64,000 nucleotides of DNA from assembly GCF_947242115.1 (NCBI RefSeq), contig NC_074716.1:24176637-24240636 (forward strand). The letters are read 5' to 3'. A program made the translations under genes and the position numbers. Source of the stretch: Biomphalaria glabrata (taxonomy: Eukaryota). Under the pieces are notes generated by a model. That model was not told the origin of the DNA and made no database searches. It was given only the letters and a program-made list of their open reading frames with translations. Numbering within the stretch: the stretch's first letter is position 1; each line of letters starts with the position of its first letter. Positions 3,351 through 64,000 of this stretch are shown in pieces.

Positions 3351-3369
3351 AAACTTTAAAGAGCTTAAC

Positions 3370-21800: not shown

Positions 21801-22445
21801 CTTTGAAAGTCATAAGCTATTAAATTATTATTTTTTAAATAACTGAGTAGCTACTAAGTTTAATGCATGCATTTCTTTGTCTTTTTTTTTTTTTTTTTTT
21901 AAAGACAGTGAATTTTGTATGTTCTATGTTTTATATGTTATTCCTACAGGGGTAAATGCTTTAGGATTTCATTTTACTATTGATTTATCTATTTTTAATT
22001 GGAATCCTATTCAGTTTCCCATTTTATAATTTTGCAAGGTTAGCATGCATGCCATTGATCACACTCATTATATGAAATATACACTGGCTTAAGTGATACT
22101 CTCTTATAGTAGCTTCTGACTAAGTAGAAACAGGGAGCATACTTTCAATCAGTACAACAACAAAAAAAAGAACTCTTCTTTTTGAAAAGTACAATTTTTC
22201 AATATCCGTATTTGATATTAATATAATAATCCACCACCAACCCATCCCAACGTAATCATGTTTAAAAGAAACTTTCTTTAATTTCACTGTCATGCCTTTA
22301 GATTCATAAATCTGTAAAGAAAAATTAACATAAAAACATACACTTTTTTTTTATTTTCATTGGGGGTTGACTTCTTCAGGTTTTCTTTGTTGTTTATTTT
22401 GTTCCTCTATTTCCCTCCCTTTGCTCTGCTACTTTAATTGAGCAG

Positions 22446-30794: not shown

Positions 30795-32637
30795 GTGAGA
30801 TTTGTTTTCACTGTTCATGTCACAGTAACCATTCTACCCACCAACCCTTGCCAATACTGTATCATATCTATCCAAGAGGCTCAGTGTTTGCTACAGAATA
30901 TATGTTTCTAGAAATGAGTATCATAGTTGCACAGACAGAGGCCACCTTCATATTTTTATTCACATAACTTCTTTATTAGATAAAACAAATTGTTAAATTA
31001 AAAAAAAAAAGTCACCAGTTTTAAACTCAAACATTAATTTTTTTTACTTGTGTCGTAGTTTTTATTATTTAAAAAATTGTAACCATTAAAAATTTACAAT
31101 AAATTTTTATAACAAAATTCCATAGCTTTAAAAAATGTATGTTTCTTACACGCTACACAATAAAATTCTTCTCTCATTATACATTATCTGTTATGCTTTC
31201 GTAAAATTATTTTTGTACAAATGTCTTAATGAAATGAAAGTTTGCAAGCTAGATGGTTTACCTTTTTATTTGTAAAGTTCTGATTGATAGAGCAAGAAGA
31301 AATTGGGGGAGGAGTGGTGAGGCCTATCTTACCTATTGGAATCAGTATTTTAGAATGAGCTAAGTGTGTTGAAGTGTGGACATTAGAATTCAACATTTCT
31401 CTTAAATTCTGTACACCTAGGAAAGTGAAGGAAAACAAGGTTCTCATTGTTCATTGTATAATGATTACATGTTTTTTTTTTTAAATATTGTAGAATGTAA
31501 CTGGTCTTTAGAATGGGAAGTACATTGCTGTCTTAAGTTGATAGAATAATAGATGGTTAGTTTGAGTTGCTAATGCATTTAAGGTGACTATTTAATTTTT
31601 AGTTTAACATGTTGCTGTTACACAGAAGGTTTCCAAAATGATAGAGTAGACTACCCTCTGACACTGGTTTGCCTTAGCTTCCGACCTGTCAGTTTATCAA
31701 TGGGATCTCCAGGGGTTATTGTATTTAGATTTGTTGAAGACAAGTTGCAATGACATTAATGTTGTCACACATCTTAGATTGGAGGTTACAAGGTCACATT
31801 AGCATACTGCAGTGTTTCACATGTGTACCTTTCTTTTCATGTTCTTCCCTCTTCATGCCTAAAGCAGAGCTGCTGCTTTGTCTTGTCTTGTTGTTGTTGT
31901 AATCTAAACTTGATATACTGGACTTGGCTTTTCTGTATCCAGGCTTATGGTAAATTACATTTCAGTAACTGTTTTGATATTAACTAAAAACTGAATTCTA
32001 GTTGGTTAGATTTAGTGGTTGTAATGCAGTGGTGCTAGTCTGAACACAAGTTGTGTAAACTGGATTGTTGATCTTTAATATTAGGGAACTCTAAATTCTG
32101 TGTTATTTATATTGTCCTTTGAAGGAATTAATGACCAAGATAGCGTTCCAAAGAAATGTTATTGTATTAGTCAGTCCTTGAAAATTTGTATGGTATATTA
32201 TGACTTATTATTTTAAGTTTAATTTTTTAGGAATTTTTTTTTTTCGGAGACCCAAGCTAAAAAGAGATTTAATTTTACTTACAGCATAATTATTCCTAAA
32301 CATATTTCAAGTATATGTTATCTACATAGCATATAATCTACATAGAAAATTCATTAATTATAAATATTTTAAAGTAGTTATTTATTGGTCCTTGTATTAT
32401 ATTGTTTGAATTTCAATATTAGTTTAGCTTGCTTATAGTTATCCTTTTATTTGAACACTATAATTAAATGTAGGTAGTTTGCCAGTCTGTTAATGGATTA
32501 GCTGCTAATTTTGTGTTGTATTTATAAAATTGACTTTTAAATCTCTATGCATTTTACATTGGCTCAATTTCATATATACCAGAAATAAGTTAATGTCTTG
32601 CATAAACTTTTCATGGACTTGCATTGATCAAAAGACT

Positions 32638-33130
32638 CTTCACCATTCCCTCTGGTCTCTTCCCTCAGCTCCCAACCCACCACCATTCCCTCTGGTCTCT
32701 TCCCTCAGCTCCCAACCCACCACCATTCCCTCTGGTCTCTTCCCTCAGCTCCCAACCCACCACCATTCCCTCTGGTCTCTTCCCTCAGCTCCCAACCCAC
32801 CACCATTCCCTCTGGTCTCTTCCCTCAGCTCCCAACCCACCACCATTCCCTCTGGTCTCTTCCCTCAGCTCCCAACCCACCACCATTCCCTCTGGTCTCT
32901 TCCCTCAGCTCCCAACCCACCACCATTCCCTCTGGTCTCTTCCCTCAGCTCCCAACCCACCACCATTCCCTCTGGTCTCTTCCCTCAGCTCCCAACCCAC
33001 CACCATTCCCTCTGGTCTCTTCCCTCAGCTCCCAACCCACCACCATTCCCTCTGGTCTCTTCCCTCAGCTCCCAACCCACCACCATTCCCTCTGGTCTCT
33101 TCCCTCAGCTCCCAACCCATCACCATTCAC
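32638..33130. repeat. 40-bp minisatellite x about 12 (caccattccctctggtctcttccctcagctcccaacccac)
   Basis: Near-perfect tandem copies. It generates the stop-free 220-aa and 173-aa ORF artefacts with 40-aa protein periodicity (3 DNA units). Confidence 0.95.
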
Positions 33131-34308
33131 TCTGTCTCGGCATGATGTTTGTTTTTAATCAAAGTTATGAATGTCTACAAATTGATACATGAACCTACAT
33201 TTTGTATGCCCATTCTTAGCAACTTGTAAACTTCATTTCATTCTAAACTGGGCTGACAGACAGCATGCATTTGTTTTGATTTTAGTTTTGAATCAATTTA
33301 TTATCAATTAAAAATACTTAAAAATCTGCTATGTTGGAAAGCTGTTTCAAAATTCTCTTATCAGTTGACTATTTCTTTGAAATAATAACCTTATGTGCTG
33401 ATATTCCCTTGCTGAAAAGGATGTTATATCAATTTTTTTGAAAGCGAATGTTCACTCAATAAAGCTTTGCTTTAGATTCTCAGATTTACTGATTGTGATT
33501 TCTTTTAAAATTTGCATAAAAATACATTGTCAAATAATTTCTACTTGTTACACTTTGTTTTGTTAAATCACTATAAAGTACAGCCATTCCACATCATCTG
33601 TTGATAAAAACACTTTTAACAAAATCGTTTTTTTTTTTTTACATTTTACATTCTGATTAAAAATGAAATCTATGGCCATATAAGTTGACTTTCCCGATAA
33701 GCCTGATCATGAACTGTGTATTGCATATACAAACGTATCCATTATTACTATGTCCACTAATCACATGTTCTGGTGTAGGGGATGATTAAACATCTCTTGA
33801 TTTGTAATCTATTTTACTCTTCTCAATTGATATAAACTTTTTCAAGGTCATTTAAATGCTTACATCTTTAAATAAAAAAAAAGACAAAGATGATGACATT
33901 ATTTTTTGTTTCACTCATAAATTTCAGATTTTATTTGACCTCACCCCAACAGCAAACTCAGAGTTTCAGGTACCATCAATGTAGACCAGATTTTTATCTC
34001 CCTTTAATTTCCTTTTTTCTCACATTGATGGGCCATCTTTGACCTTTGACACCTACTATTAATATATATAATATATCTATATAACTGTTTGGCTTGGACA
34101 CTAAAGCTGCATAGAATTTTACTGTTTGCATAAAATGTGTGTGTTTTTAAAAAAAAAAATTTTAATTAAATGCCAGCCTAGGCATGACTGTAACTATTTC
34201 CAATCTATAATTTAAAGCCTGCCAACTCTTCTCTTAGAAAAGCTTTGTTTTTCATGACTAACTGTAAACTCTCATTATTGTAAAAAATAGCCCACTGAGA
34301 TGTATAAA

Positions 34309-41499: not shown

Positions 41500-41730
41500 A
41501 GTTCTAGTCTAGATATAGTAGATTCTATATCAAGATTCTAGATCTAGATATAGACTTATATCTAACTCTAGATCTAGACTTAGAGACTTGGATCTATTTC
41601 TAGATCTAGACTTAGAAACTTAGATCTATTTCTAGATCTAGACTTAGATCTTGAATCTAGATTTAGATATAAAACTAGGTCTAGATCTAAAACTAGGTCT
41701 AGATCTAGCTAGATCTATGTCTAGATTGTA
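41500..41730. repeat. TCTAGA-rich palindromic block with about 38-bp internal tandem units (tctagatctagacttagaaacttagatctatt)
   Basis: Visible repeats of ctagatctagacttaga. Confidence 0.8.
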
Positions 41731-46745: not shown

Positions 46746-49136
46746 AATACTACATATAATTTAGAATTCAGTCCAAACAATAGGTATACAATTGTACCAC
46801 ATTACACAATGTTCAGGTGAATTCACCTTTTTTTCCTTCAGAGTTATTATTTTTCTGAGCTTTTCTATTGACTGGCTAGCTTTTTTTATAATCTCTAGCT
46901 ACTATCTCATGTGTTATTTATTTTTAACACAGACATAATCATCATTAAAATGAGACAAAATGCTTTGTACAGATGCTTTTCCTTTTTTTGGGGCCCCAAA
47001 TAGGCTTTTGCGATCATTGTAAGTTAAGTGGGTTTGATGGTTCTAGAATTAACTTCAAGTTATGTGAACTGGTTGAGTTTCCTTTCATTGAGTTGCCTCC
47101 CATTAAACAATACTTTCGTCAGCTGCACACTATGTATGACAAAGCAGTTTGTATCAACTCTTGAGTAATCTTTGACATGCAAGCTTCAATGTGCCCTATG
47201 AACCTATTATTAGTAACAAGAATAATTATAATACTCTTTATTGTCCTTTAGTAAATTTGCCTTGCACAATGATCAACTGATTCTACTTTGCCCAATGACT
47301 GCCAAGTACTAATTACAAGTTGGTATACTAAAAACTTACTCCAGGATTCTTTCTCAAGACCATCAGTTTGACTGTCAAGTACTTCACCATTTGATCACAA
47401 GATAGTATTTATAAAACTAGTTTGATAGATTGGATCATAACTTGCATCCTTATTTAAAAAACATTTTAAATTAACAGACTTTAAAATCGCTTAAGGCTAC
47501 AAAAAAAAGAACAAAGGCAACAACTATTGAAGGTGTACATTTTAATTATTATAATGGTATATATAAAGAGTGGCATATCATCCTCGATGATTGCATATAT
47601 CTCAACACAAAAAGCTCATAAAATCTATACATCTGCCATTAACACCAAGTGGCTCTCTACAGATGTTGTTGCTTCTAAAAAGTTAAGTAGGTAGAAATTT
47701 GACAGTGGAACACCAATTACATATCTAGAGCAAAGTGTATTAGATTTACTTATACTGGTTTCATCTATGTCTAGATCTTTTGTTTTTCTGATGTAACCTG
47801 CAGTTTTCATAAATGTAATCAAGTTGTCAAGCAAATCTAGGCCTAGATCTATAAAAAAGTAAAAAGTTAAATTCCCCTTTCAGACCATGTGGTCTAAAGT
47901 GCTAACTTATTCAAAAATAAAATGCTCATGCTATCTGAGATGCATGCCATTGGAAAACATAGGTAGTGGTGGAGCTCTTACAGCCATTGTCTCTTTTGGA
48001 ATAACAACTTTTCAGAACCAATCTGAATCCAGGCCCCCATATATGGCTTAGAGAGCAAAACTGTTAACAATGACAGAAGGAACAATGGTGAGTATCTTCA
48101 GGAAGGTTCTCATTTATATAGGTTGGCTACCAACCTACAAGAAAAACTGAATAGAAACATCCTCTGCCTAGTGGCTAAACCCAAATAAGGGAAAGGCTTT
48201 GGGAGTCAATCCTGAGAAAAAAATCAGGAGCCTATGATCCTGAGGCAGCTACTAGCAAAGTACACTATGGCAGACTCTGTGAAAATACTGATCTCAAACT
48301 GTATTGGCTAACTGCCATTCGTTTGGACCCAATAGTTGCATGGAAAGGGAGGAAGTGGGTGAAAAAGTGACTACAATAGCCAATGCCTCATTTTGTCTAA
48401 AGCCCAAACTTTATTTTTTGCTCCATAAGATAAACCACAATTGTCTGACCACTAAAGGTAGCCATAGAGATAACTAGATTTAACTAACTAAACACCTGGG
48501 TTTAAACAACATGCATAAATGGTAGGGAATTTTCAAACAGTTTTTCTGCAGTCTTTTGTGTCTTTTATGACTTAGGTCATGATTTTAATTTTAATAACTA
48601 GGATGAGTGAAAATTTTAGGAATTAAAACTGCATGTAGCAAAAAAGTTTATTGTAAGAGACACTATTGACATAATAATAAAAGATCATTTGACTAACTTG
48701 CTAACCATGAAAAGAAAAGTTGAAAGAGACACTACTGTCAAGTCAATAACAGCATCTAAAGTACACTATAAAATATTCTAAATTACTTTAAAAAAAAACT
48801 ACAACCCAGCCAATCATTATTAAGGGATTAAACCAACATGATGATGCAGTAATGCAAACTAAATCATTTTACTATTAGCAGGGGTTGTTTTGAACATGGT
48901 TATGATATGGGGATCCTAAGCAGAACTTAATTAATAGAATTAAAGAAATAAATTATTAACATTTAACAACAAATGTTCTAGTGTATCAATAAAAAAAGCA
49001 TCAAAATAGTTGCGCCTTAAAATTTCATTTTCTCCATAAAATTTTAAAAGACATACGAAAGCTAATTTAGAATGAATTATATAATTTTACACACATATCA
49101 AGACAAACTGAAGAACTCTACCTGCCGGTAGTAACC

Positions 49137-49232
49137 TTGTGACCAGATAAACCTAGGGATAGACACTGCGCTGCCACTCAGGTTACTTTCTTCAAAAGGG
49201 GCCTTCGATTGAAATTTTACCTTAATTTTTTC
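49137..49232. repeat. Short dispersed repeat copy 1 (about 80% identical to 61648-61745)
   Basis: cggtagtaaccttgtgaccagataaacctagggatagacactgcgctgccactcaggttactttcttcaaaaggggccttcgattgaaattttacc matches cagtagtgaccttgtgacctgattactgtagcgatagacagcgcggtgctgccacttgtgtaacattcttcaaaagggtccttcgatgtaaagttttacc. Confidence 0.7.
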
Positions 49233-50269: not shown

Positions 50270-50383
50270 TCACTCTGTGCCCATTGATAATAAAGAGTTA
50301 ATGGTGGCATCTTTATTTCCCCTGTTGGCTTCCATCACAGACTTGATAACTTCATCTTCCATGTTGGGGAACATGTCTTTCAC
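50270..50383 (-). CDS. TOLLIP: TOLLIP terminal exon (CUE domain) with TGA stop
   Basis: Acceptor tcaccag|. Encodes [37 protein letters not shown], aligning with human [38 protein letters not shown]. Confidence 0.9.
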
Positions 50384-50536
50384 CTGGTGAATACATTAGT
50401 TCATCTAACAATTGTTGTTTACAATTTTAATAAGTTTCAAAGTAAGAATGAATAAAGAAAACTAATTTAAAATCACCAATTATACGCTTAAATGGATGTA
50501 TCTGATAAAAAGCTATGTGTCTGTTATTATAAAAAC

Positions 50537-50664
50537 CTGTTTAAAATCTTCTTCTGTATACAAAGGGCCAAGAGGTTGAGGTGGATAAGCTGGCATCTGT
50601 CCTGGCATGGGTGCCATACCAGGCATGGGTGCCATACCAGGCACAGGAGCCATACCAGGCATAA
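50537..50664 (-). CDS. TOLLIP: TOLLIP exon 6 (linker with a 3x PGMAP(V/M)P coding tandem repeat)
   Basis: Acceptor ttttag|, donor |gttttt. Encodes (V)MPGMAPVPGMAPMPGMAPMPGQMPAYPPQPLGPLYTEEDFKQ, aligning with human CSEEDLKAIQ. Confidence 0.8.
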
Positions 50665-51187
50665 CTAAAACAGAAATAAAATCATACACAATCAACACTA
50701 GGAAAACATTAGCTCATAACAGAAGAAAACAAAAACATGTTATTTGCAAGGCCTACCCAGGAAATTTAGTCTTTCAAAAGTATTTATTTTTGTTTTAAAC
50801 TAGGCATATTGTTCTGTTGTTTCATGCATTTTCTTTTGTATTATAATAATTTAAAAACTTTTTGAAGAGTTACTTATTCCTATTAGACACAACTTTTAAA
50901 TAAATTGGGAATTTCAGCTAGTGGGTTAAAAAGTTAATTTTGCTGAAATGTTCCAATGACCAAATTTGTGAGGTAGCGTATGGATAATATATCGAGAGCC
51001 ATCTGTCTTTAAAATACCTCCCAAAAAGGTCCAGGTGGCCATTTTTGTTTTCTAGCTGCAATTCATAATAACAAAAATGTGTAGATTTTGAAAATATGAA
51101 CTCTTAAAAAAAATTATTTACTCCAACAAAAACGTAGTAGGACTACAACTGTCTTTAGCAATGAAAATGAAATAATTCAGTTGATAC

Positions 51188-51278
51188 CTGGTGCTGGTGT
51201 TGGGTAATAGACAGGCATCATCATAGGCACTGGAGTGGTGTAGGAATAACTAATGATATTGCTCTCAATTGGAGCCTG
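51188..51278 (-). CDS. TOLLIP: TOLLIP exon 5 (linker)
   Basis: Acceptor actttcag|, donor |gtatca. Encodes QAPIESNIISYSYTTPVPMMMPVYYPTPAP(G); Pro/Met-rich like the human linker. Confidence 0.7.
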
Positions 51279-51508
51279 CTGAAAGTGCAATAAAACATTT
51301 AAATAAAAACAAAATACAGTTGTAGAGAATCTGTATGCATTAATGTTGTACTAAATATAATTTCATCATTTTTAAATTTATTAAATTAAATTAATATCAA
51401 ATTCATAATAATACCTTTGAAATCTGTATTTTTTTTTAAAACTACAAATGTAAAGTAAAAGAATATATTCTTGACAAAGGCTGAAGTCTGTAGTAACATC
51501 AAACTCAC

Positions 51509-51661
51509 AGACAAGGACAAAACTAAGTTGATAGAGCCTTCTTTATCATCACCCAGTCGACCACTGAGATGGAACCATTCATCGACAGTCTCACCATTCA
51601 TGACGGCTTCTGGAAACCTGATGTGTGCCCAGGCTATACGATCATCCATTGTAAATGACCT
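51509..51661 (-). CDS. TOLLIP: TOLLIP exon 4 (C2 domain)
   Basis: Acceptor ttaaccag|, donor |gtgagt. Encodes [51 protein letters not shown], aligning with human [51 protein letters not shown]. Confidence 0.9.
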
Positions 51662-51835
51662 CTGGTTAAAAGTAAAAATGTTTTAAAAAAATATTTTTTA
51701 GGTAGATAACAACAACATTAACAGATTTTATGTAAAAGATAAGAATTTTTCATTTGTAATGGTGCTGTTTTGTTCTTATATGATACTAAAGATAGAATGT
51801 TATACAATATATATATAATTAAATATTAAACTGAC

Positions 51836-51884
51836 CTCATCAAATACTTCAATATACATCGAGTCAACACCTAAAGGAAGATAC
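51836..51884 (-). CDS. TOLLIP: TOLLIP exon 3 (C2 domain)
   Basis: Acceptor tcctcctag|, donor |gtcagt. Encodes (A)YLPLGVDSMYIEVFDE, aligning with human VPPGVDSFYLEIFDE. Phase links it to exon 2. Confidence 0.8.
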
Positions 51885-52279
51885 CTAGGAGGAAAAAAAA
51901 AAGGATTTCCATTTTTTAAAAGAAAAAAAGTTGTTAAGGGTGTACTACTTACGTTTGTAAAAATGACTGATAGGCAATAAAAAGTAAAACAAGGTCTCTT
52001 ATTTGGAAACGAAAGATAATGATGATTTTTTTTAAACACAAGCTTTGAACTAAATTACTGAATCTACTGTTTCCAAATAGATAGTGTAGTTGTAATAAAG
52101 AAAATTAAAAAAACTAAAATTGTTTCATTTCAACTCTTGCAAAAAAAATAAATAAATAAATAAAATGTCCATTTCCTGAACTCTATACCCTTTCATGAAT
52201 TCAAAGACAAATATCATAATTAAAAACAATATTTCTAACTACTACAAATTGAATGAAATTAATAACAAAGTCAACCTAC

Positions 52280-52413
52280 GCTGTTACTGTTTTGTTCCAT
52301 CTTGGATTTTTAGCTCCATTGTAAGCTGTTGGGGTCTCAAACACTGTGTGCCCAATACGAACTCTGCAATATGGGTCCATTTTGGTGATCCCATAATTTT
52401 TATTCAGCTTTGC
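52280..52413 (-). CDS. TOLLIP: TOLLIP exon 2 (C2 domain)
   Basis: Acceptor ttttctag|, donor |gtaggt. Encodes [44 protein letters not shown], aligning with human [41 protein letters not shown]. Confidence 0.85.
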
Positions 52414-52779
52414 CTAGAAAAAAAAATAAATAGAATTCTAAAAATGAATGAGCAAAACTTTTGACCAAGCACAAAGTAGTTCTTTAAGGATTTTCTAGCT
52501 TTAGTCCAGAGTATGAATCTTAAAAAAAAAAGAAAAAAAAAACAAAGCGTGTGATCTGTTATGCTGTCAATCAGAACCACTACACTTGCTACTAGCCAGC
52601 TAAAAGTGGAGTGTGTGTCTAGTGCCTGGTGAAACTTTTAGAAGTACTGCCACTGATGAGTGGATAAAAGGAAGTGAATGGAAGAAGAATGGGGAGAGAG
52701 GAACTTAAAGGATTATTGTATGATGAAAGCTGTACACTTCTAGTGAGAGATAGTTTCAAAATCTATCTACACTTAGTAC

Positions 52780-52941
52780 CTGTACAACAGAAATGCTCAA
52801 CCGACCAGCAAAGTTAGATGAGGACATGACATGACCAGCTTGTTGTTGTGCCTGTAATGCCCTGGCAATTCTTTCATCCTCCTGTTCTTGGGTCAGGGCA
52901 GGTCCAGTGCGGAGAAAATCAGATGGTAGTTCACCAACCAT
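52780..52941 (-). CDS. TOLLIP: TOLLIP coding exon 1 (ATG at 52941)
   Basis: Encodes MVGELPSDFLRTGPALTQEQEDERIARALQAQQQAGHVMSSSNFAGRLSISVVQ, aligning with human [20 protein letters not shown]...VGRLNITVVQ. Donor |gtacta on the minus strand. Confidence 0.85.
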
Positions 52942-54609
52942 AACCTAATTTAAATTTGGAAAGCATTTTACAAAATTGTAAGTTAGTTGAACTAACAAAG
53001 CCCATACATGCCAATATAAAACTTTCACACTTTAAGGTTATTTCAAGGTTATTTTCTTCCATACTGCATCTAACCAAAGAGACTTAATTGTAATTATCTT
53101 CTCCTTTAAGTAACATATTTTATAATTTATAAAATAAGATTTTAAGAAACCAAACAATTTGCATTATATTAAATCATCAGTACAACAAAAAGTATTATAA
53201 TTAACGATATGATACTAATTGTCATAGATCTTAACTCCAATATTTGCAGATACACGGTAATGCTAAAACTTGATAACCAAATATATATATATATATTAGG
53301 GGTGCGTCCGGAGCCAGATATGACAGGATAGTAAAATTTGATATTCGGCCGGAGCCGGATACCTAAGTGTCTTGTTAATAGCTTGTGTTGCTGAACATTT
53401 TACGAATCTGTTAAATATCATACATATATTTGTTGGTTTTATTATTTTTTTGCTTTTATATACCTTATTGTTTTAAATATATTAGTTGGTTTTATTTTTT
53501 TTTCCTTTTATATACCTTATTGTTTTAAACTCTGTTACTAATTGATTTATTCAAGCTTTACAGTATTTCTAAAAATCTGTATTGCATGAGTGTTTCTTTT
53601 GTGTATGTACGATGCCACCAAATGTAAAGGCTGTATGTGGGAGGGTCAATGTAAAATATGTTAGTATACATTTAACTAGTTACTAATGTAAATCTCTCAT
53701 AAGTGAAGTGCAATCTGCCTTTAATAGTGGTCGGATGTATGTGTTCATTTCAGACCAACAGCCTGGTCAGATATACCTAGTGAGCCTACACATGTAGTCC
53801 TAGTGTAGTGTGTATAGCTGTTTGTGTTAACCATCAAGCATTGTTTTTTCCTTGAGCATATACATGCAATAGAGTTGGGTGTCAGTCAAAAAAGATAACA
53901 TATTGGCATGGTCAGTCAAGCATATAAATAAATTATACCCGTCCATGAGTTAGAGGTCAAGGGTTGTTGTTTTTTACGCTCCAGCATATTGTTTCTTTGT
54001 TTGCTAGATCTAACTGCGGTACTATTATTCAATTTATTTTATGCAATTTTAAAATTTACTGTAAGGTTTTCTGTTATTTATTAAGTCAAAAGAATTAAAC
54101 AATGAAATTAGCCTTCTTTCTATAAAGTTTTTAATACAAGGCAAAAAATACACACACGCAAACATGCACATCTTTGTTTTATTTTATTGTGCAAAGAACA
54201 TACGTTAGAAATATTAAATGCAAAGAACGTATGTTAGAAACATCTTCCTTAATTATTACTTATTAATTATTTTATTCATGGTTTCAGTAACTGTTACAAA
54301 AGGGAACAATAGTAAGCCTATGGATGTCAGGTGTGTAAATGTCATCCTAGCCTGATACACAGTGGCTATGTACGCATCTTAAGTAAAAAAAAATAGAAAT
54401 AACAAGGAGTTAATTGACTTTCACATATTATTAAGAATATTGTTATCAAATCAAGACACTTAACTGCAGGAGTAATATTCAAGTTAACACGTTAGAAAAA
54501 TTATTTAACCGTAATATTTATTGACTGTGTAATATCCTATGTTGGCACGTTGTGTTTTTTAAAATTCTGGCTTCAAATGGTCAATGTCTATCAATAGAAT
54601 GGGTATCAA

Positions 54610-54975
54610 GGACCAAAGAAATAAAATAAAGAGTAGGGGGTGTTAAGCTCTCCATTTAAAGATAGCCCTGATCGTGTCTTCTACAAAATAATTAGTTACT
54701 GGCTTACTGGGCTACATAATCTCGTGGTTTGTGTTCTGTGTAGCTAAAGGTCATTCGTTTAGGTGTGTGTGATCTTTAGTCCAGCTTACACACACCAAAG
54801 AAAAAAAATAAAGAGTAGGTGGTGTTAAGCTCTCCATTCAAAGATAGCCCTGGTCGTGTCGTCTACAAAATAATTAGTTACTGGCTTACTGGGCTATATA
54901 ATCTCGCGGTTTGTGTTCTGTGTAGCTAAAGGTCACTCGTTTAGGTGTGTGTGATCTTTAGTCCAGCTTACTAAT
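54610..54975. repeat. About 185-bp tandem duplication (x2) inside the DNA transposon
   Basis: aaagaaa..aaagagtagg(g/t)ggtgttaagctctccatt(t/c)aaagatagccctg...tgtgatctttagtccagcttac is repeated head-to-tail at about 90% identity. Confidence 0.8.
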
Positions 54976-55089
54976 TGAGATTTATGTTCAAGTAACTCGG
55001 CACACTTGAAAACCGAACCATGTGATTCAGATTTTTCTCCAAATAAGCCAATTCTTTGTCCGGATACCAGTGTAGATGTTTGGCTTGAA

Positions 55090-55700
55090 GTCCAGCCCCC
55101 CCTCCCCCCAATTAAGATTAACTACTAAGTAAACAAACCTAGTTCCCTCGTGTGACCTCTAAAGAGTGCTTACGTCCATCGTATCTGACTTGGGGTCACC
55201 TGTCAATCAATGAACTCAATGTGATGGACTAAACAAATAAAAGGGGGAGGGAGTTGTTCATCTGGAAATATACCTAGTTTCCTTAGGTGGCTCTTGTAGT
55301 CCAGCCCCCCAATTAAGATTACTAAATAAACAAACCTAGTTCCCTCGTGTGACCTCTAGAGAGTGCTTATGTCCATTGTATCTGACTTGGAGTCACCTGT
55401 CAATCAATGAACTCAATGTGATGGACTAAACAAAGAAAAGGGGGAGGGAATTGTTAATCTGGAAATATACCTAGTCCTAGTTACCTTAGAGGTGTGGCTC
55501 TTGTAGTCCAGCCCCCCTAATAAAGATTAACTACTAAGTAAACAAACTCAGTTCCCTTGAAAGGTGTGACCTCTAGTGAGTGTCAATACGCTGACATTAA
55601 ACCTACGTCCATCGTATTTAACTTGTGGGCACCTGCCTATAAAAAAAACTCAATGTGATGGACTAAACAAATAAAAGGGGGTGGGAGTTGTTCATCTCTA
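55090..55700. repeat. About 208-bp tandem repeat (x3) inside the DNA transposon
   Basis: Units begin cagcccccc..aattaagatta(a)ctac..aaacaaacctagttccctcgtgtgacctcta.agagtgctta.gtccat.gtatctgacttgg.gtcacctgtcaatcaatgaactcaatgtgatggactaaacaaa.aaaagggggagggag. Confidence 0.8.
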
Positions 55701-56470
55701 CCTCTGGAGTTATACCCGCACAGCTAGACAGACGTCTGGTCAGCATGACGTAATCAAGGAATGTAGCATTTTAACATGTTAACTAACCTACTCAAAGGTC
55801 AAGACAAATTGAAAAAATGTGCTAGCCATTGCTGCTCTGTACGTAAAGTGCATTTATGATGTAAAGTATCATTTCTATTAAGACGCCTTGTATTTATAAT
55901 AAACGTTGTTTCGTGTAAATTCATAATGTAATGGCTCTATTTTTAAGCACATTATTTTGTTTTTTAAATTAAAATATAAACATTAATACATTCTACAACA
56001 GACATTAACGGAACGAGGTCCACTTTATGCATATTAAATAGTTGTACTTTTTACAATTCTGTAGTGATATCCGGGTGGAGCCGAATATCGCCGGATAGTA
56101 AAAAATGCCGGTTATTCGACAGAAGTCGGAGCGACTATCCGGTGCACCCCTAATATATATATATTTATATATAGATCTATATTATATATTATTTTCAATT
56201 ATTTATTAAAAATAGAGAAAACTTGCAGAAATCATGAAAATGATCAGTTTCTATTGATTTGTGTCTAATACTAACACAGTAACAGTCTATCACTGTCTAA
56301 GTCTAAGGTAGGATCCCAGTAAGAACTGTATTTAAATACCTTAAAAAAAGTTTTTAAGTAGTAGGCCTAATAGAAATCTAGGTTAAATTTTCTTATTTTA
56401 TAATTTTTATATTCCCCAATATTCTAACCCAACAGTTACAGTCACATCATGATTACCCATATCCTACTTT

Positions 56471-56487
56471 GTACACTGGCAGTGTAC
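56471..56487. other. Hairpin motif GTACACTG-g-CAGTGTAC followed by TTTTTCAAAAA (copy A)
   Basis: Perfect 8-bp inverted repeat, related to the copies at 56829 and 57979. Confidence 0.6.
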
Positions 56488-56828
56488 GTTTTTCAAAAAC
56501 TTATATAAAAAAAACTATTAAAGTTTTTTCTATTTTTTCTTTTGTTTTCATTTAAGAACATGTTTGTCCACATTTTGCCACTGCTGTTTGACTTTTACAA
56601 TTGCGTTTTATTATTTTATTGCGCATGAAAGTGACAACATTGTCAAAAATTGAAAAAAATGAAACCAATTCGGAAAATGTAAGTAATAACACATTTATAT
56701 AAATATTTTCAAATAAAACTAATTGATTTAGAAACATAAAGTATCCTAGTATTATAATTAATTAATAGATTTAAAATTTATAGCATGGTCTTTTCAAATT
56801 TTAATTTTTTGTAACGTACACTCCCAGT

Positions 56829-56845
56829 GTACATGGCAGGATATG
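56829..56845. other. Hairpin motif ACGTACACTcccAGTGTACAT (copy B)
   Basis: Shares aCGTACACnnCCAGTGTACAT with the copy at 57975-57997. Confidence 0.6.
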
Positions 56846-57978
56846 CCACTGTAGGAATCAATGACTGATATATGAATCAAAATAGATCAAGACTTCATTT
56901 AGAACATAGATTTGCTTGTTTTAACCAATATTATCATATATTATTGCTATACAACATACATACCATTATAATTGCAAATTATAGAACTAATTATGATGAT
57001 TATAAGGTTATTATTTGAAAACATATAAACAATAATATAATAATTCCTTTTATATATTTTCTTTCTTTTTGTTTTATTTTACTTCATGCAGTTCTCCTAG
57101 GCTATAGTATTTTAACTGACTGCTTAGAAAAATATTGGTCCCATTAGCAAATTATAATACTATTGATGTATGGTTATGTGAAAAAAAAATTATAATAATA
57201 ATTATAGATATTTATAATATTTTTTAGGGTCTCAAGTAAATATTAACAGTTCACAATGTCATCATTAAGAATCAAGATGAGAACCTGATATCTAATAGTA
57301 AATAAATGAATTAGACAAAAGCATGATTGAGTTTCAGTGACATTAGAATCTTATAATTTGTTATTAGGACCTTGTGTTATGTCATAACATAATATGTTTA
57401 CCTCTGAGACACCGTTATTTATTATGTATTCTTATTTTTACAATTTAGTCACAATTTAGTATAGCTAATTAGCAGAGCTAATATCACGAGGGAATTGAGT
57501 CTATAGACTTTATCAAAGCTAACAAACTTGAAAATGCCAAAATTATGACTGTGACCCAATGAAAAGAATTAGAAAAAAATGGAATTTATGATTATTACAT
57601 AACTGATAAGCATATAAATATACGAATATACGAGCATATAAAGGTATGTTTGGTTCAACCGCACTTCAAATATTAAAATCTTTGCTTATGGACATGATCT
57701 TTGAATATCTCACTATTGTACATTAATTTGTTGTTGTAAAAAATATATCTGGATAGTACTGGTTAGTACCAGATAATGTTGTACATTTGATGCCTATTTT
57801 TTTACTATATTGTAATAATTTTTTAGTAAAAAAAGCATTAAAATATACTTTTTTTTTTTGCGTTAAAATGCTTAATTTGTGTGTTTTTCAATGTTATTAA
57901 CTATTCTGTTTTCACTTAAAGATTGTAAAAAAAAAATATTTTTTTTATATATGTTCCTCACGGGCCACTTCCTGCTAC

Positions 57979-57995
57979 GTACACCGCCAGTGTAC
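57979..57995. other. Hairpin motif ACGTACACcgCCAGTGTACAT + TTTTCAAAAATTC (copy C), about 105 bp upstream of the RTE ORF ATG
   Basis: Shares the 5' part with copy B and the 3' part (CAGTGTAC..TTTTCAAAAA) with copy A. Confidence 0.6.
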
Positions 57996-58099
57996 ATCTC
58001 ACAGAATTTTCAAAAATTCTTTTTGCAGTGTCTTAGTTTGACAAGACAATAATATATTCAGGACATGACAAGGAGCACATTGGTGGTGTAGGAATCATC

Positions 58100-60814
58100 A
58101 TGTCTAAAATAGCAGCTTCAGCGCTAATTGCTTGGAAGCCGATCAGTGACCGCATCATTACAGCTCGACTCCAAACAAAGGAAATTAAAGTCACTACCAT
58201 CCAAGCTTATGCCCCTACAGAGGATGCAGAAGATACCATCAAAGATCAGTTCTATAATCAACTACAAACCACTCTTGATGAAACACCTACTCACGACCTA
58301 ATTCTACTGATGGGAGATTTTAACGCCAAAATCAATCCCAACCGAACTGGCTTTGAATATGTAATGGGACCATATGGCTCTGCAGAAAACATCAGTGATA
58401 ATGGCGAGCGTTTGATTTCTCTCTGCACATCCAACAGCCTTTCAATTGGAAACACATATTTTAAGCACAAACAAATACACAAAAAAACATGGCGATCACC
58501 AAATGGGGAAACCTTCAACGAGATAGATTACATTTGCATCTCCAAACGATGGAGGTCATCTCTGTTAGACGTGCGGACCCGCAGAGGAGCTGATATCGGC
58601 TCAGACCACTACCTTGTCAGTGGCAAATGTAAGCTCCGATTGAAACGCCAACCAAAACGAGCCACACGACCCCGCCCATTTAATGTAGAGAAGCTTAAAG
58701 ACGGCAATACTGCAGCACAGTTCCAATTGAAACTAACGAACCGCTTTGAGGCTCTTGCAGATATATTGACCCTTGAAGAAGAGTGGGCCAACTTCAAAGA
58801 TACCACTATTGGGTGCGCAGAAGAAGTTATCGGAAGGAGGCGAGGTTCATACAAGAAACGGTGGATACAAGACAGAACATGGAAATTGATAGATGAGAGG
58901 AAAGAGGCCAAACGTAGACGAGATCAGAAAAATGAAACACAGGATCGCAGCCTAGCGGAAGAAGCCTATAGGGAAGCAGATCTGAAAGTAAAGAGAAGCT
59001 GTCGGCAAGATAAACGGGACTGGATTGAGCAGAAGGGACAAGAGGCACAAGCAGCTGCAAGCAGAAATGACACAAAAACCCTCCATCGTATTGTCCGAGA
59101 TCTCACTGGAGCAAAGAGTGGACATGGGGCACCAATAAAAGACAAGCAAGGCAAAACTTTGTTAACGAAAGAAGAACAGGATGCAAGATGGGTAGAGCAC
59201 TTTAAAGAGACCCTTAACCAACTGTCGCCAGACATAACTTACATATTCAAGGACCCCTCTCCAGACAATGATCTCAAGGTCAAGACAGACCCAATAACTG
59301 CTGAGGAGGTTACCATGGCCATTGCAGTGCTAAAGAATAACAAAGCACCAGGACTAGACATGATATCAGCAGAAATGCTAAAATATGGGGGACAGTGCAT
59401 TGTTAACAGAATGACTGATCTCTTAAATCTCTGTTGGCGAACTTCAAAAGTCCCAGAGGACTGGCAAAAGGGAGTGATTGTAAAGCTTCCAAAAAAGGGC
59501 AACTTGGCAGACTGTAACAACTGGAGGGGCATTACTCTCCTCTCTGTCCCAGGCAAAGTTTTCAGCACTGTTTTGTTGAGACGGCTTCAACAGTCTGTAG
59601 ATGAAAGGCTCTGAGAAGAACAAGCAGGTTTCCGAAGAGGCAGATCATGTACAGAGCAGATTTTCGTTTTACGAAATATCATAGAACAAAGTTTTGAGTA
59701 CCAACAACGGCTAACGATCAGTTTCGTGGACTTCAAAAAAGCGTTTGATAGTGTCCACCGAGAATCACTATGGAAAATAGTTAGAGAATACGGTATACCA
59801 GAAAAATTCGTCCAGATCCTACGACACCTTTACAGTCAGTCTAGTTGCTGCATTAAAACAGAAGAGGGAACAACAGAGTTTTTTACAATCGAGACAGGTG
59901 TGAGACAGGGGTGCATCTTATCTCCCTTCCTTTTCCTCCTAGCCATCGACTACATAATGAGGAGAGCAATGAACCAGACTGCCTTTGGTATTCCATGGCA
60001 TGAACAACTCCGATTGACGGACTTGGACTTTGCTGATGATGTTGCACTACTCGGGGCTACAAATAAATGCATTCAAGAAATGACGGAGAGCCTAGACAGA
60101 GAGGCACCCAAAATTGGCCTCCGCATAAACTTGGATAAGACTAAAATTATGCGAGTGGGATATAAGGCAAAGGGTGTCCCCGTCAGACTTGGCGAGTCAA
60201 AGCTTGAAGAGCTGGACAAGTTCACGTACCTTGGCAGCATCATAACAAATGATGGAGATGCTTACCATGATGTAGCGTGCCGAATAGGAAAGGCAGGGAG
60301 CATTTTCCAAAGGCTGCAGCCTATTTGGACTAGCCAAGCCATTGGACTCGAGACAAAAATACACCTTCTCAACACAATCGTCATTCCAACTGCTACATAT
60401 GCATGTGAGACGTGGAAGTCATCTGTCAAAATTGAGAAAAGACTAAATGTGGCTCAACAGAGATGGCTGAGACGGATTTTGGGAGTCAGTTACACAGACC
60501 GGATCTCAAACAAGGAAATCCTTTGCCGAACTGGGAGTCGAACACTTAGTGAGGTTGTGACTGAGCGTCGCATGAGGTTTGCGGGACATGTTCTACGTCA
60601 AAATGAATTACGCACACCAAGAGTTGCGATAACATGGAAGCTAAAACGAGGAAAGCGCAAACAGGGACGTCCTCGTATTACCTGGCGACATACCTTCATG
60701 GAGGACCTCAGAACAGTGGACACCAGATGGGAAGAGGCTTCAGACATTGCCAGTGACAGATCATTATGGAGACAGCTTGCCGCCCAATGCGCCGAACGGC
60801 GCGGGAGGACCTAA
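58100..60814 (+). pseudogene. RTE-like pol ORF (about 905 aa) interrupted by one in-frame TGA at 59612-59614
   Basis: ORFs 58100-59614 and 59726-60814 are in the same frame (both frame 2). The only interruption is a TGA between the endonuclease/linker and the RT domain. Confidence 0.7.
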
Positions 60815-60959
60815 GTCTAAGTCTAAGTAAGTTTGACCAATAGAAATTTATATTTAATAGAAAATTTATATTTAATGCAGTAATAAAGTTTTGGGGGTTA
60901 ATGGGTTAAGTCATGATTATTATTAGACTTCCAAGATTAATTAGATATATTAAAATTAA

Positions 60960-61080
60960 ATAGACAAGATCTAATCTAGATCTAGAATAGATAAGATCTA
61001 GAACTTGAGTACAATAAAAAAATAATCTAGGAGTCTAGACGCTAGACTCTAGATCTAGAATAACCTAGATTTACATTACT
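60960..61080. repeat. TCTAGA-rich palindromic block
   Basis: Motif composition as above; about 130 bp downstream of the RTE stop. Confidence 0.7.
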
Positions 61081-61129
61081 ATTCCTCTATGGTAAAACTT
61101 CCCATCAAAGGCCCCTAGTTTTTCAAGTC

Positions 61130-61260
61130 AATTATTTGGCAGCTGTCTATCCGCATGTATGATGACGTAGTGACGTGACCTTACCTGCCCACACGCGCTC
61201 TACTAGCAGAGCGCGCCCGGTCACTGGTCCCTCTCTCTCTTTCCTCTTTTAGTACGGTAA
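61130..61260. promoter_or_regulatory. GC-rich promoter-like segment with tandem CRE half-sites (TGACGTAGTGACGTGAC) and a 7-bp-stem hairpin GCGCTCTactagcAGAGCGC
   Basis: It is directly visible and bracketed by TCTAGA blocks. GTGACGTAG recurs at 20590. Confidence 0.3.
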
Positions 61261-61647
61261 ATCTTAGATCTATGTAATATAGATTTAGATTTTTTTCTAC
61301 AAATTATTCTTGGAATAATATTAATGTTTAGATGGTATTTTATGTTTTTAATTTGGGAATTTTAATTAATATATTATTAATTAATTAATTATAGACTTAC
61401 GTATCTTTGCTAAAAAAAATAAAATAATAAATCTAATCGTGTGTTAACTGTTTTGTTTATTTTAAATACATATTTAAATAAATTTTTTCTGCCCTCGTTT
61501 TTTTTTAGATTATGACTCTCCGATTGAATCATTTTAACAGGATAATAATAAGCAAAGCATAAGTTTTAAAAAAATAATATCTAAAGATACAATGCCATAT
61601 TTTAGAAGAAAGATGTAATTTTATTTTTCTACTTTAAAAATAGCCAG

Positions 61648-61745
61648 TAGTGACCTTGTGACCTGATTACTGTAGCGATAGACAGCGCGGTGCTGCCACT
61701 TGTGTAACATTCTTCAAAAGGGTCCTTCGATGTAAAGTTTTACCC
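61648..61745. repeat. Short dispersed repeat copy 2
   Basis: See 49137-49232. Confidence 0.7.
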
Positions 61746-61794
61746 AGAGAGTAATAGTTATAATAGTAGACAATCTAAGAGTAGTAAGACTACT

Positions 61795-61905
61795 ATTAGT
61801 AAGTATTAGACTAGAATCTAGATAAACTATATCTAGTCTAGATATACTATACTAGTATAACTAGATCTATAGATCTAGTATCTATAGGTCTAGCTCTATT
61901 CGGTA
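61795..61905. repeat. TCTAGA-rich palindromic block
   Basis: Motif composition as above; with 60960-61080 it brackets a GC-rich about 700-bp segment. Confidence 0.7.
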
Positions 61906-63096
61906 ATAGTTTAGATACGCAGATACCTTTGCCGACCACCGTGTTGTTTGTTAACAATATTTATCTCCCTTACCTATATTGAACTTTCAATAACTTTTTT
62001 TAAAGAGAGTTTTTGTTCTTATGCTGTCAACTTATGATTTTTTAAGTGTATTTACTGAAATGAAGGTCTAAATAAAATGTTATTAATAAATTGATGAACT
62101 TGTTGTTTCTTCTTTTTTTTTTCTACTTATGAAATTATTAATTAAAAAATATGTGTTAACAATTAGATCTATAATTAATATATTAACTCACCAAGCAAAG
62201 CGAAATAATGATAAAATAAAAAAAACAAATATGCATGAATTAAATGAAATGAAACACGCATCTATATATACATGTTATGTTTAATTTTTATTTTTTTTGA
62301 ACAAAATTATGCATTATGACTTAGTGATCTTTTTAGAGCAATGACAATAAATGATGTAGATCTAGTACGGGAAACTTATTACTATAAGAAATAATACTTT
62401 TATGTTTATCTGTTGATGATTAAGACTACAGTTAGATCTATACATTTCTAACGAATTTTGAGCGCTCTCTATTTTCGTAAAATCACACCACGAAGAGAAA
62501 GAATTTTATGAAGCTGACACAGATCAGTGTCCCTTTCTCTTTCGCCGTAAGGTCTTCTGAGTGGAGTCTACTGTCTACCAGAGATTTTTTGGCGTGTGTT
62601 TTATGATCAGATAGGACTAATGTCTGTGTTTATAACTCTTACCACTACATCTGGCTCCACTTCTCTTGGAGGGAGGATAGGTCGAGTGTAACTAGATCAC
62701 GAACGTCTTTGTTAAACGTTACGTAGCACCTGTTAAACTATCATGTTTCACAATCTGAAATTTACTTTGCGTAGAGTGGGGAACAAAAGCCAATGTATAA
62801 AGAAACAGGTAAGAAGCATATACACTACTATTTAGATAATTTATGCATCTTTACTTTCGGAGTTCATTAAAAAAAAACAACTCCTCACCTATTACACTAA
62901 ATTTGTTTAAGATGTGTAGTTGTGTGTGTGTGGGGGGGGGGTAGCGACTCCACCTACCAACCCTTCTCTTCACATGGATCCACTAGCGCCCATGTATTAC
63001 ATTCCGTTACGGATTCCAAATCAAGTTTTTCTCTCCCGCCGTACCGTACAGGTGGCGATTGTCTCCATTTATTCTTACGTACCTTTAAACCCTAGC

Positions 63097-63258
63097 TGCG
63101 CCGGCCGTCACACGCGATCTTTGTCTTTACGGCAGAACTAGGTGTGATGTAATCACCTTCCCCTGTTCGGAGCTTCGCTGCGCCGGCCGACACACGCGAT
63201 CTTTGTCTTTACGGCAGAACTAGGTGTGATGTAATCACCTTCCCCTGCTCGGAGCTTC
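63097..63258. repeat. 81-bp GC/CpG-rich tandem duplication (x2)
   Basis: gctgcgccggccg(t/a)cacacgcgatctttgtctttacggcagaactaggtgtgatgtaatcaccttcccctg(t/c)tcggagcttc is repeated head-to-tail. Confidence 0.9.
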
Positions 63259-63473
63259 GCCGGCGCCGTGGTCATATTAGGTCATCTACTGCTAGGATCG
63301 CTGGTATGCTCATAAAGGGAGAAGGGCAAGGTACGGTGTTTTACTTGGTCAAAATTTATCCTTCTTCGCTTTCTTTGTCGGTTCGTTTCACCGACATGCA
63401 GTTCAACTGAGGTCTAGTCGGATGAGACTAAGACTGAAACGTGATGCAACATAAACCATGTCACGATCAAAAC

Positions 63474-63612
63474 TCTCTTGGTTGTATCCTATAATGTCGG
63501 CCAGCTTGTACAGATAGTTATGTACGACAAAAACTCCCGTGGTTGGATCATATCGTGTTGGCCGGCAGTCTATAAGTAGTTACATCAAGAAGTAGTTATG
63601 TATGACAAATAC
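63474..63612. repeat. About 65-bp imperfect tandem duplication
   Basis: ctcttggttgtatcctataatgtcggccagcttgtacagatagttatgtacgacaaaaa is followed by ctcccgtggttggatcatatcgtgttggccggcagtctataagtagtta...gtagttatgtatgacaaa. Confidence 0.6.
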
Positions 63613-64000
63613 ACTCTGATTGTCATAGAGTCTAGTCCCCCTCCCCTATTTGGTCCACAGAAGTAGTGACATAGTATTTTTATCTTGAAGCTCTTTCATC
63701 TCATTAAAGAGATTTGATAAAGCCTTTGATTTTCATCGCCCCATCCCTATTTGGAGCCATCACAAGGTTACTAACTGTGATGCCATTGTAACATTTCCCG
63801 AATCTGTTATAAAAGCAGTTCCCTTCCACTCTTCAAGCCTATCATTACTTTCTCTACCTTGTTGTAGATATTGTTTGTTCTTATATTGTGCATTGTTTTT
63901 CATTCAATATGATTATAAGTTACCTTACAAAATAAGATAGAAGGATAAAGAACTTGTACTTATAGCTACCATATTTTTTTTTAACAGCAGCATATGGAGC

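Follow-up and report, generated by a model that had tools for sequence, protein, structure and literature searches.

The CpG-dense stretch at positions 61100-63650 of the Biomphalaria glabrata sequence analysed here (a window of 64,000 nucleotides) is probably the distal part of a lineage-specific nest of insertions, mostly transposable elements, in the first intron of the Tollip gene, and as such an ordinary feature of this genome. This reading draws on direct observation of the orthologous locus, from which the extra DNA is absent, and of exon and intron positions, inverted repeats, LINE domains and base composition. In this Biomphalaria lineage, insertions would have swelled intron 1 of Tollip, on the − strand, from less than about 1 kb to more than 11 kb. 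The stretch itself appears to comprise three pieces, namely a MITE-like element (61091-61744), an ancestral block (61745-61898) and a non-coding insert that spans 2.1 kb or more, from 61899 to beyond 64000.

Tollip intron 1 and the orthologous locus

The + strand of the window carries an ASK1/MAP3K5-like gene, the kinase exons of which match ASK1/MAP3K5 (a protein search with the kinase returned only short non-Biomphalaria proteins), and the − strand carries Tollip (Toll-interacting protein), whose assembled exons are 99% identical to the UniRef entry A0A2C9JMZ2_BIOGL. Coding exon 2 of Tollip lies at 52780..52944 on the − strand (VMVGELPSDFLR...SISVVQ; 98% in tblastn to residues 25-81 of B. 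glabrata Tollip), and all window sequence to the right of it is intron 1. Exon 1 (MAASNGVTSSPVNGQNSALSGSKRNQ), which on the + strand reads CTGATTTCGTTTGCTGCC...GCAGCCAT, was not found in the window at either the protein or the DNA level. Intron 1 is hence longer than 11 kb here. In B. pfeifferi it measures 0.74 kb and in Bulinus truncatus, the outgroup, about 1.1 kb; as it is short in both of these species, the long intron is the derived state.

The comparison covered one sister species (B. pfeifferi) and one outgroup (Bulinus truncatus), the 23-kb B. pfeifferi locus (L001) having been reached via the B. pfeifferi member of the Tollip protein cluster. A single 13.4-kb HSP of 92.7% identity pairs L001 10480-23474 with window 53292-40118, and L001 10306-10449 corresponds to window 61898-61745 at 80.5% identity, so that the alignment breaks at window 53292, 61744|61745 and 61898. 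About 30 bp in B. pfeifferi stands in place of window 53293-61744, and neither this stretch nor 61899-64000 has a match anywhere in L001; the latter has no counterpart in B. pfeifferi over the 10 kb upstream of Tollip, a span that also has no called genes. Tollip exon 1 of B. pfeifferi lies 228 bp beyond the shared block, and the insertion points are only 0.2-0.5 kb from that exon.

Members of the probable insertion nest

The first member of the nest is a non-autonomous element at 53297..56152 with a TIR (TAGGGGTGC...) at 53297-53305 and 56144-56152 and subterminal inverted repeats at 53340-53361 and 56068-56089; its TIR suggests, by likeness to the hAT consensus, a candidate hAT-like element. 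It is followed by a small inverted-repeat element at 56458-56845 and, on the + strand at 58037..60828, by an RTE-type non-LTR retrotransposon, which lies directly to the left of 61100-63650 and outside it. The last of these combines an apurinic-type endonuclease and a reverse transcriptase in one element with a simple-repeat 3' end, as expected of the RTE clade: Pfam profiles recover Exo_endo_phos_2 (PF14529, 26.7 bits, just below the cut-off of 27.4), RVT_1 (PF00078, 81 bits) and DUF6451 (PF20049), and TRF reports a (CTAAGT)3 tail at 60811-60828. In its endonuclease, reverse transcriptase, DUF6451 and short tandem-repeat 3' tail it resembles the RTE/BovB-type LINEs; unlike intact LINEs of this clade, it is 5'-truncated and frameshifted, and the family itself is unmatched, in that a protein search with the reverse transcriptase returned 1712 homologues with a top identity of 61% and near-identical copies are absent from the protein collection. 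Transposable elements make up 44.8% of the B. glabrata genome and unclassified repeats 17.6%, with LINEs as the commonest classified repeats (PMC5440852).

Between the LINE and the stretch of interest lies a window-specific TCTAGA-rich low-complexity block (60959..61073; TRF rows at 60959-61059, motif block at 60974-61070), for which no B. pfeifferi counterpart was found at that position. It is succeeded by an inverted-repeat, MITE-like element at 61075..61761 (the element proper at about 61091-61744), with arms of about 100 bp and an AT-rich core. The arms are 81% complementary over 61075-61116 and 61719-61761, and 85% complementary over 61091-61116 and 61719-61744; some 100 bp of them can be aligned at about 65-85% likeness, and the inverted similarity continues for about 16 bp into both flanks. 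The arm alignment also takes in a third copy of the family at 49124-49221 (78%) together with the B. pfeifferi orthologue (L001 14519-14615). At its right end the element adjoins, at 61744|61745, host DNA common to B. pfeifferi, in which the empty site is found at L001 ~10449/10450. Its terminal inverted repeats, further copies and empty site in the sister species, along with a size of about 0.65 kb, the lack of an ORF and the AT-rich core, are those of a MITE. Unlike MITEs, it has long arms that are only about 65-85% alike, inverted similarity reaching 16 bp into the host sequence, and no target-site duplication that could be found, the flanks tcctctat and cagagagt not being direct repeats. 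The left flank is instead an inverted copy of the right-flank host DNA, a pattern that an inverted duplication would explain at least as well as a clean cut-and-paste insertion.

Two motifs to which the preliminary description had drawn attention are indeed present on the + strand of the left arm of this element. One is a CRE half-site pair, TGACGTAGTGACGTGAC, at 61163..61179, which the arm alignment pairs with ATCAGGTCACAAGGTCAC and ATCTGGTCACAAGGTTAC in the other family copies; from this position it is to be seen as the GGTCAC motif that recurs in this family, in diverged form. The other is a GC-rich hairpin, GCGCTCT/AGAGCGC, at 61195..61214 (7-bp stem, 6-nt loop), which folds weakly better than shuffled sequence (-8.1 kcal/mol for the 36-nt segment, z -1.86, equalled by 9 of 200 shuffles). 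To the right of the element stands the TCTAGA-rich block of 154 bp at 61745..61898, identified as ancestral host intron DNA by its alignment to B. pfeifferi, in which about 30 bp separate it from the match to window 53292. The TCTAGA blocks, proposed earlier as flanks of the whole CpG-dense region, bracket at 60974-61070 and 61816-61878 only the inverted-repeat element of about 0.65 kb. Further TCTAGA blocks occur at 3370-3692 and 41508-41726.

The second insert begins at 61899 with TTCGG, not with an LTR-type TG, and its right part lies beyond the end of the window. It can be divided into an AT-rich left part (G1, 61899..62449; 24% GC, CpG o/e 0.87), a CpG-dense part (G2, 62450..63620; 44% GC, 56 CpGs, o/e 1.00) and a CpG-poor tail (G3, 63621..64000; 2 CpGs, o/e 0.18), the last of which likewise has no B. 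pfeifferi counterpart and contains a 101-bp-spaced repeat CCCC(T/A)TCCCTATTTGG. Both tandem duplications reported earlier lie within G2, with their dimensions revised. The supposed two copies of an 81-bp unit are a genuine tandem repeat with copies 95-98% identical, but the unit is 82 bp, repeated 2.1 times at 63095..63268 (TRF period 82, 95% matches, score 318; 63095-63176 and 63177-63258 are 98% identical). The pair of about 65 bp corresponds to an older and looser duplication at 63466..63616, with units of about 65-70 and about 85 bp, 78% column identity, a 17-bp indel and 20-nt cores 78 bp apart.

Inspection of X-masked six-frame translations gave no long ORFs in G2 and no coding signal in 61899-64000, and an 85-aa ORF of G2 obtained only two junk tandem-repeat matches in a HMMER search of 1.84 billion proteins. 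Rfam returned nothing at the gathering threshold for the whole window or at E <=1 for 60800-64000, and ARAGORN no tRNA; these searches likewise gave no tRNA-, 5S- or 7SL-related SINE head at 62450-62880. Inspection by eye of the 61899 boundary and of about 62450-62880 provided no convincing LTR, Helitron or SINE hallmarks. Neither the 64-kb window nor the 23-kb locus of B. pfeifferi contains a further copy of the insert, and the 82-bp unit had 0 exact matches in JGI metagenome contigs. G2 may belong with the tandem-repeat-bearing non-coding parts of transposons: as in LTR U3 regions, the monomers of LINE 5' UTRs or the cores of non-autonomous elements, it is non-coding, GC-richer than the host DNA and furnished with short recent tandem duplications. 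It differs from these in having no demonstrable LTR TG...CA ends, primer-binding site, poly(A) tail or downstream ORF. We infer that the insert is a transposon rather than other inserted DNA.

CpG retention and the probable age of the inserted DNA

The contrast in CpG content that first singled out this region is real but was drawn too narrowly. CpGs are rare elsewhere (o/e 0.32 window-wide, and 0.23 in both the ASK1 region and Tollip exons 2-8), and the 80 CpGs of 61100-63650 give an o/e of 1.00, i.e. no depletion; the CpG-retaining zone, however, spans 53.3 kb to 63.6 kb, and comparable patches occur at 1801-3450, deep in ASK1 and far from any promoter, and at 20101-21150. To speak of a GC-rich region of 2.5 kb is not warranted, as its GC content is 35.4% against 32.3% for the whole window, with 20-27% in 61200-62400 and 48-53% solely in the approximately 400 bp of 63000-63400. 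The earlier alternative of a young GC-rich transposon was therefore close in so far as young inserted repeat DNA has kept its CpGs, but at least two insertions are involved and most of the stretch is rich in AT.

Methylation of CpGs is present in B. glabrata, and the CpG o/e of its transcripts peaks at 0.21 and 0.69 (PMC3681652). In the window, the inserted pieces have o/e values of 0.60, 0.63 (the RTE LINE), 1.03 (the inverted-repeat element), 0.87 and 1.00, whereas the ancestral pieces within the nest are CpG-poor (0.41 for 52945-53292, and no CpG at all in 61745-61898). In B. pfeifferi the ratio is 0.05-0.5 over the 10 kb that lie upstream of Tollip. These values are consistent with a scheme in which the old sequence of this locus, whether within or between genes, was subject to germline CpG methylation and decayed to an o/e of about 0.2, while the inserts, being younger than the split from B. 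pfeifferi, would be too recent for such decay and would have stayed at 0.6-1.0. Youth, and not protection from methylation, would then be what preserves the CpGs of the last insert. The equation of CpG retention with unmethylated intergenic DNA, as against methylated gene bodies, was rejected because depletion is just as strong in the intergenic DNA between ASK1 and Tollip and in the 10-kb upstream region of Tollip in B. pfeifferi. G3 is CpG-poor and yet absent from B. pfeifferi, which makes the correspondence between absence from that species and intact CpGs an imperfect one.

It is unlikely, although not without points in its favor, that the inserted DNA keeps its CpGs mainly by lying in an unmethylated promoter-proximal domain of Tollip, as a hypomethylated 'island', rather than by its youth. 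In molluscs gene-body methylation is usually lower toward 5' ends, and the proximity of the B. pfeifferi insertion points to exon 1 would accord with such a domain, as would a mild rise in CpG in the 1 kb around that exon (o/e 0.37-0.60 versus 0.1-0.2 nearby); the B. pfeifferi promoter region is nevertheless itself depleted relative to 1.0. Against such a domain also stand the CpG-poor ancestral pieces of the nest, the depletion of G3, which is nearer to exon 1, and the CpG-intact patch at 1801-3450, distant from promoters. The ancestral start of Tollip is no more than about 1 kb from the site, where promoter-proximal hypomethylation could add to CpG retention. On the preferred reading of recent insertion, local CpG richness in this genome would flag recently arrived DNA, not promoters, and scans for 'CpG islands' in Biomphalaria would mainly pick up young transposons.

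Promoter-like features

The preliminary description had offered, as one option, a CpG-island promoter and a non-coding first exon, which would belong to a downstream + strand gene past the window. We consider this highly improbable. The use of vertebrate-type CpG islands is not known from mollusc genomes. By the CpG-island criteria applied here (at least 200-500 bp, GC of at least 50-55%, CpG o/e of at least 0.6), 61100-63650 attains an o/e of 1.0 but a GC content of 35%, and 63000-63400 alone comes to 48-53% GC. An o/e of locally about 1 amid depleted surroundings and a core of some 400 bp at about 50% GC do recall the vertebrate-type promoters, and the return of CpG depletion after 63620 is what might occur in a methylated gene body. 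Unlike such islands, however, the region lacks conservation in B. pfeifferi, whose orthologous locus is without the sequence and has no called gene over the 10 kb upstream of Tollip; the region is situated in an intron of a gene on the opposite strand, and its LINE and TIR neighbors retain CpG equally.

The geometry of the putative core promoter is also wrong. The string of CCAAT (62790-62794), TATAAAG (62796-62802) and CAG|GTAAG (62806-62813) is present on the + strand at 62790..62813 as reported, but it cannot work as a transcription start plus first donor: a TATA-directed start is expected about 25-31 nt past the TATA and CCAAT normally tens of bases upstream of it, whereas here the first TATA base (62796) is followed after 13 nt by the donor G (62809), which falls upstream of any such start, and a single nucleotide separates CCAAT from the TATA. 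No other CCAAT/TATAAAG/CAGGTAAG string occurs in the window, a second TATAAAAG occurs at 63806-63813, and Markov simulations yield expectations per window of 0.08 for the CCAAT/TATA/donor combination (as a loose pattern) and of 0.003 for the CRE pair; the patterns were set after seeing the sequence, and this rarity is therefore not a valid test.

A role acquired after insertion is conceivable but very unlikely, namely that 62450-63620 stays unmethylated and might serve in Tollip intron 1 as a new regulatory element, i.e. an alternative or antisense promoter or an enhancer. Tollip is a negative regulator of Toll/IL-1 signalling and this snail transmits Schistosoma mansoni; if such a role were true, Tollip regulation could vary between Biomphalaria species or strains. 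By itself the nest carries little weight, since repeats account for about 45% of the B. glabrata genome and intronic nests of young insertions are commonplace.

There is finally scant probability that B. pfeifferi has lost an ancestral sequence by deletion, or that the long intron is an artefact of assembly or haplotype, since, for all that the comparison involves one sister species and one outgroup, that 61075-61761 shows no target-site duplication and that the shared block is 80.5% identical in surroundings of 92.7%, the Bulinus intron is also short, the extra DNA is made up of mobile elements that can be recognised and have termini of their own, the undecayed CpG points to recent arrival and the window has no Ns. 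The more than 10-fold difference from B. pfeifferi in the length of Tollip intron 1 is relevant to comparisons of immune-gene regulation and to marker design at this locus.

Lineage-specific DNA in Tollip intron 1

Stop-to-stop ORFs of the window delineate two host genes, an ASK1/MAP3K5-like kinase on the forward strand (kinase exons at 15.9-18.1 kb) and the Toll-interacting protein, Tollip, on the reverse strand (exons at 50273-52944), to which the features of the preliminary description are antisense. For the Tollip exons assembled from the window, the identity is 99% against the B. glabrata protein (UniRef A0A2C9JMZ2) and 82% against its Bulinus counterpart, which places the window in B. 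glabrata or a very near relative. The first 26 residues of the published protein, MAASNGVTSSPVNGQNSALSGSKRNQ, have their own separate exon, which was found in the window at neither the protein nor the DNA level; therefore, the DNA from 52945 to the window end belongs to Tollip intron 1.

We compared the window with L001, the genomic locus of the B. pfeifferi Tollip-cluster protein with 10-kb flanks. Window positions 53292-40118 align with L001 10480-23474 in one 13.4-kb HSP at 92.7% identity, and 61898-61745 align with L001 10306-10449 at 80.5%, a drop relative to the surroundings that probably stems from microsatellite-like instability. The intervening 53293-61744, in place of which B. pfeifferi has about 30 bp, aligns nowhere in L001, and neither does 61899-64000, even with 7-mer seeds. 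Exon 1 of B. pfeifferi Tollip lies 228 bp past the shared block. With intron 1 at more than 11 kb in the window, against about 0.74 kb in B. pfeifferi and roughly 1.1 kb in Bulinus truncatus, the outgroup, the extra DNA is derived in the window's lineage.

CpG content of old and new DNA

The window is AT-rich (GC 32.3%), and its CpG observed/expected ratio (o/e) is 0.32 as a whole, with most 1-kb bins at about 0.1-0.2. Against this strong depletion, the central claim that CpGs are dense at 61100-63650 holds (80 CpGs, o/e 1.00). However, the region is not GC-rich as described: its GC content is 35.4%, falling to 20-27% at 61200-62400 and attaining 48-53% solely at 63000-63400. Nor is the CpG density peculiar to it: the CpG-retaining zone starts at about 53.3 kb, and comparable patches occur at 1801-3450 and 20101-21150.

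CpG depletion is the background state of all old DNA at this locus, with o/e values of 0.23 in both the ASK1 region and Tollip, 0.03 to 0.4 in the DNA between them, and 0.05 to 0.5 in the 10-kb flank upstream of Tollip in B. pfeifferi. Among the segments missing from B. pfeifferi, the ratio is 0.60 and 0.63 in two mobile elements (a terminal-inverted-repeat element and a LINE), 1.03 in an inverted-repeat element, and 0.87 and 1.00 in the first two parts of the last insert, G1 and G2; its third part, G3, is CpG-poor despite having no B. pfeifferi counterpart. Ancestral pieces inside the nest of insertions are depleted (52945-53292, o/e 0.41; 61745-61898, no CpG).

CpGs are methylated in B. glabrata, with transcript o/e peaks at 0.21 and 0.69 (PMC3681652). 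On the simplest reading, CpG richness at this locus would be a mark of recent arrival of the DNA. The insertion points lie near the ancestral Tollip start, and promoter-proximal hypomethylation there could have contributed to keeping the CpGs; this explanation ranks second for us, given the depletion of G3 and of the embedded ancestral pieces and the presence of a comparable CpG-intact patch deep within ASK1.

Members of the nest

The leftmost insertion is a 2.86-kb element (53297-56152), presumably hAT-like, with subterminal inverted repeats and terminal inverted repeats TAGGGGTGC; these termini sit within a (TA)n tract. It is followed by a small element of about 390 bp (56458-56845) with 33-nt inverted repeats (88%), an extra 20-nt copy of which lies at 57977-57996, by a 5'-truncated, frameshifted RTE-type LINE (58037-60828) with endonuclease, RT and DUF6451 domains and a (CTAAGT)3 tail, and by a TCTAGA-rich block (60959-61073).

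An inverted-repeat, MITE-like element occupies about 61091-61744. Its paired arms align over roughly 100 bp, and a further copy of the arm family at 49124-49221 is conserved in B. pfeifferi (L001 14519-14615). The CRE half-site pair of the preliminary description, TGACGTAGTGACGTGAC, is present at 61163-61179, but in the arm alignment it stands where other copies have ATCAGGTCACAAGGTCAC; this makes it a divergent form of the GGTCAC motif repeated in the family, and we reject it as an independent regulatory site. The hairpin reported there also exists in the left arm (61195-61214, 7-bp stem), albeit weakly (z -1.86). No target-site duplication was found at the element's flanks. The inverted repeat runs about 16 bp into both flanks (61075-61090 versus 61745-61761; ctattcctctatgg / cagagagtaatag); the right one consists of host DNA that B. 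pfeifferi has as well, without the element, and the left is an inverted copy of it. Judging from this arrangement, element and flanks may have arisen by inverted duplication instead of by a clean insertion.

The last insert, from 61899 to beyond 64000, comprises G1 (61899-62449; GC 24%), G2 (62450-63620; GC 44%) and G3 (63621-64000; GC 35%, o/e 0.18). G2 carries both described tandem duplications: the 81-bp repeat, recovered as 82 bp x 2.1 at 63095-63268 (95-98% identity), and the one of about 65 bp, a looser duplication at about 63466-63616 (78% identity, 17-bp indel). No ORF of note was found in 61899-64000; its longest had two matches among 1.84 billion proteins, both tandem-repeat junk. 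The insert matched no Rfam family or tRNA and had no second copy in the window or L001, and the 82-bp unit had no match in JGI metagenome contigs. Its lineage specificity, its position in a mobile-element nest, a composition differing from the host and recent internal tandem duplications point to a putative transposon origin.

G2 also contains the CCAAT, TATAAAG and CAG|GTAAG configuration (62790-62813) proposed as a transcription start and first donor. The CCAAT/TATAAAG/CAGGTAAG string occurs once in the window, where Markov simulations expect 0.08 for a loose version; this rarity weighs little, the pattern having been drawn up from the very sequence in question. The geometry of the string fails: 1 nt separates CCAAT from the TATA, and the donor G (62809) follows the TATA's first base by 13 nt, which puts it upstream of the expected position of a TATA-directed start; an exon cannot begin and end here. 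As the sequence is moreover absent from the sister species, lies in an intron of an oppositely oriented gene, and in B. pfeifferi no gene is called in the first 10 kb upstream of Tollip, a promoter at 61100-63650 is very improbable. The young-transposon option was right in spirit, and the preliminary description is partly confirmed as a whole: what the region holds is an ordinary nest of young intronic repeats, one member of which matched no family in the searches described.

Other features of the locus

The CpG-intact patch at 1801-3450 (48 CpGs, o/e 1.14) lies in an ASK1 intron and is likely to be one more young insertion. A full CRE palindrome, TGACGTCA, occurs in it at 2681, and the motif CGTTTGAGGCGCATC occurs twice, at 2076 and at 3319, with inverted forms near 2456 and near 2861; the right border of the patch is a 320-bp TCTAGA-rich block (3370-3692). 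Such TCTAGA/CTAGAT-rich, palindromic low-complexity blocks recur at 41508-41726, 60974-61070 and 61816-61878, and in L001 at 2729-2782, 10304-10386 and 21877-22062. Of the window's four blocks, two are common to B. pfeifferi, namely 41508-41726 and the right-hand one, within 61745-61898, which is ancestral intron DNA; three adjoin CpG-intact inserted DNA. This hints at preferred insertion sites or parts of elements.

ASK1 and Tollip form a convergent, tail-to-tail pair whose coding ends lie about 7.7 kb apart (window 42.5-50.3 kb; L001 13474-21220). This arrangement and its sequence are kept in B. pfeifferi (92.7% identity, no large indels), quite unlike intron 1 of Tollip. The PGM-repeat segment of Tollip (50516-50713, reverse strand) reads MPGMAPVPGMAPMPGMAPMPGQ in the window and MPGMTPVPGMAPMPVMAPMPGQ in the B. 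glabrata UniRef entry; B. pfeifferi has one repeat fewer. As the window matches neither database version, it may stem from another strain or from a very closely related species. ASK1 introns also harbor a reverse-transcriptase fragment of another retroelement (24775-25678, forward strand; RVRVNNVISNERIVNTGAPQGAVTSPLWFILYTND...; CpG o/e about 0.3-0.7) and a C-rich tandem array (32509-33189) with strong negative GC skew, open in all three forward frames and repeating ...PTHHHSLWSLPSAPNPPPFPLVSSLSSQPTTIPSGLFPQL...
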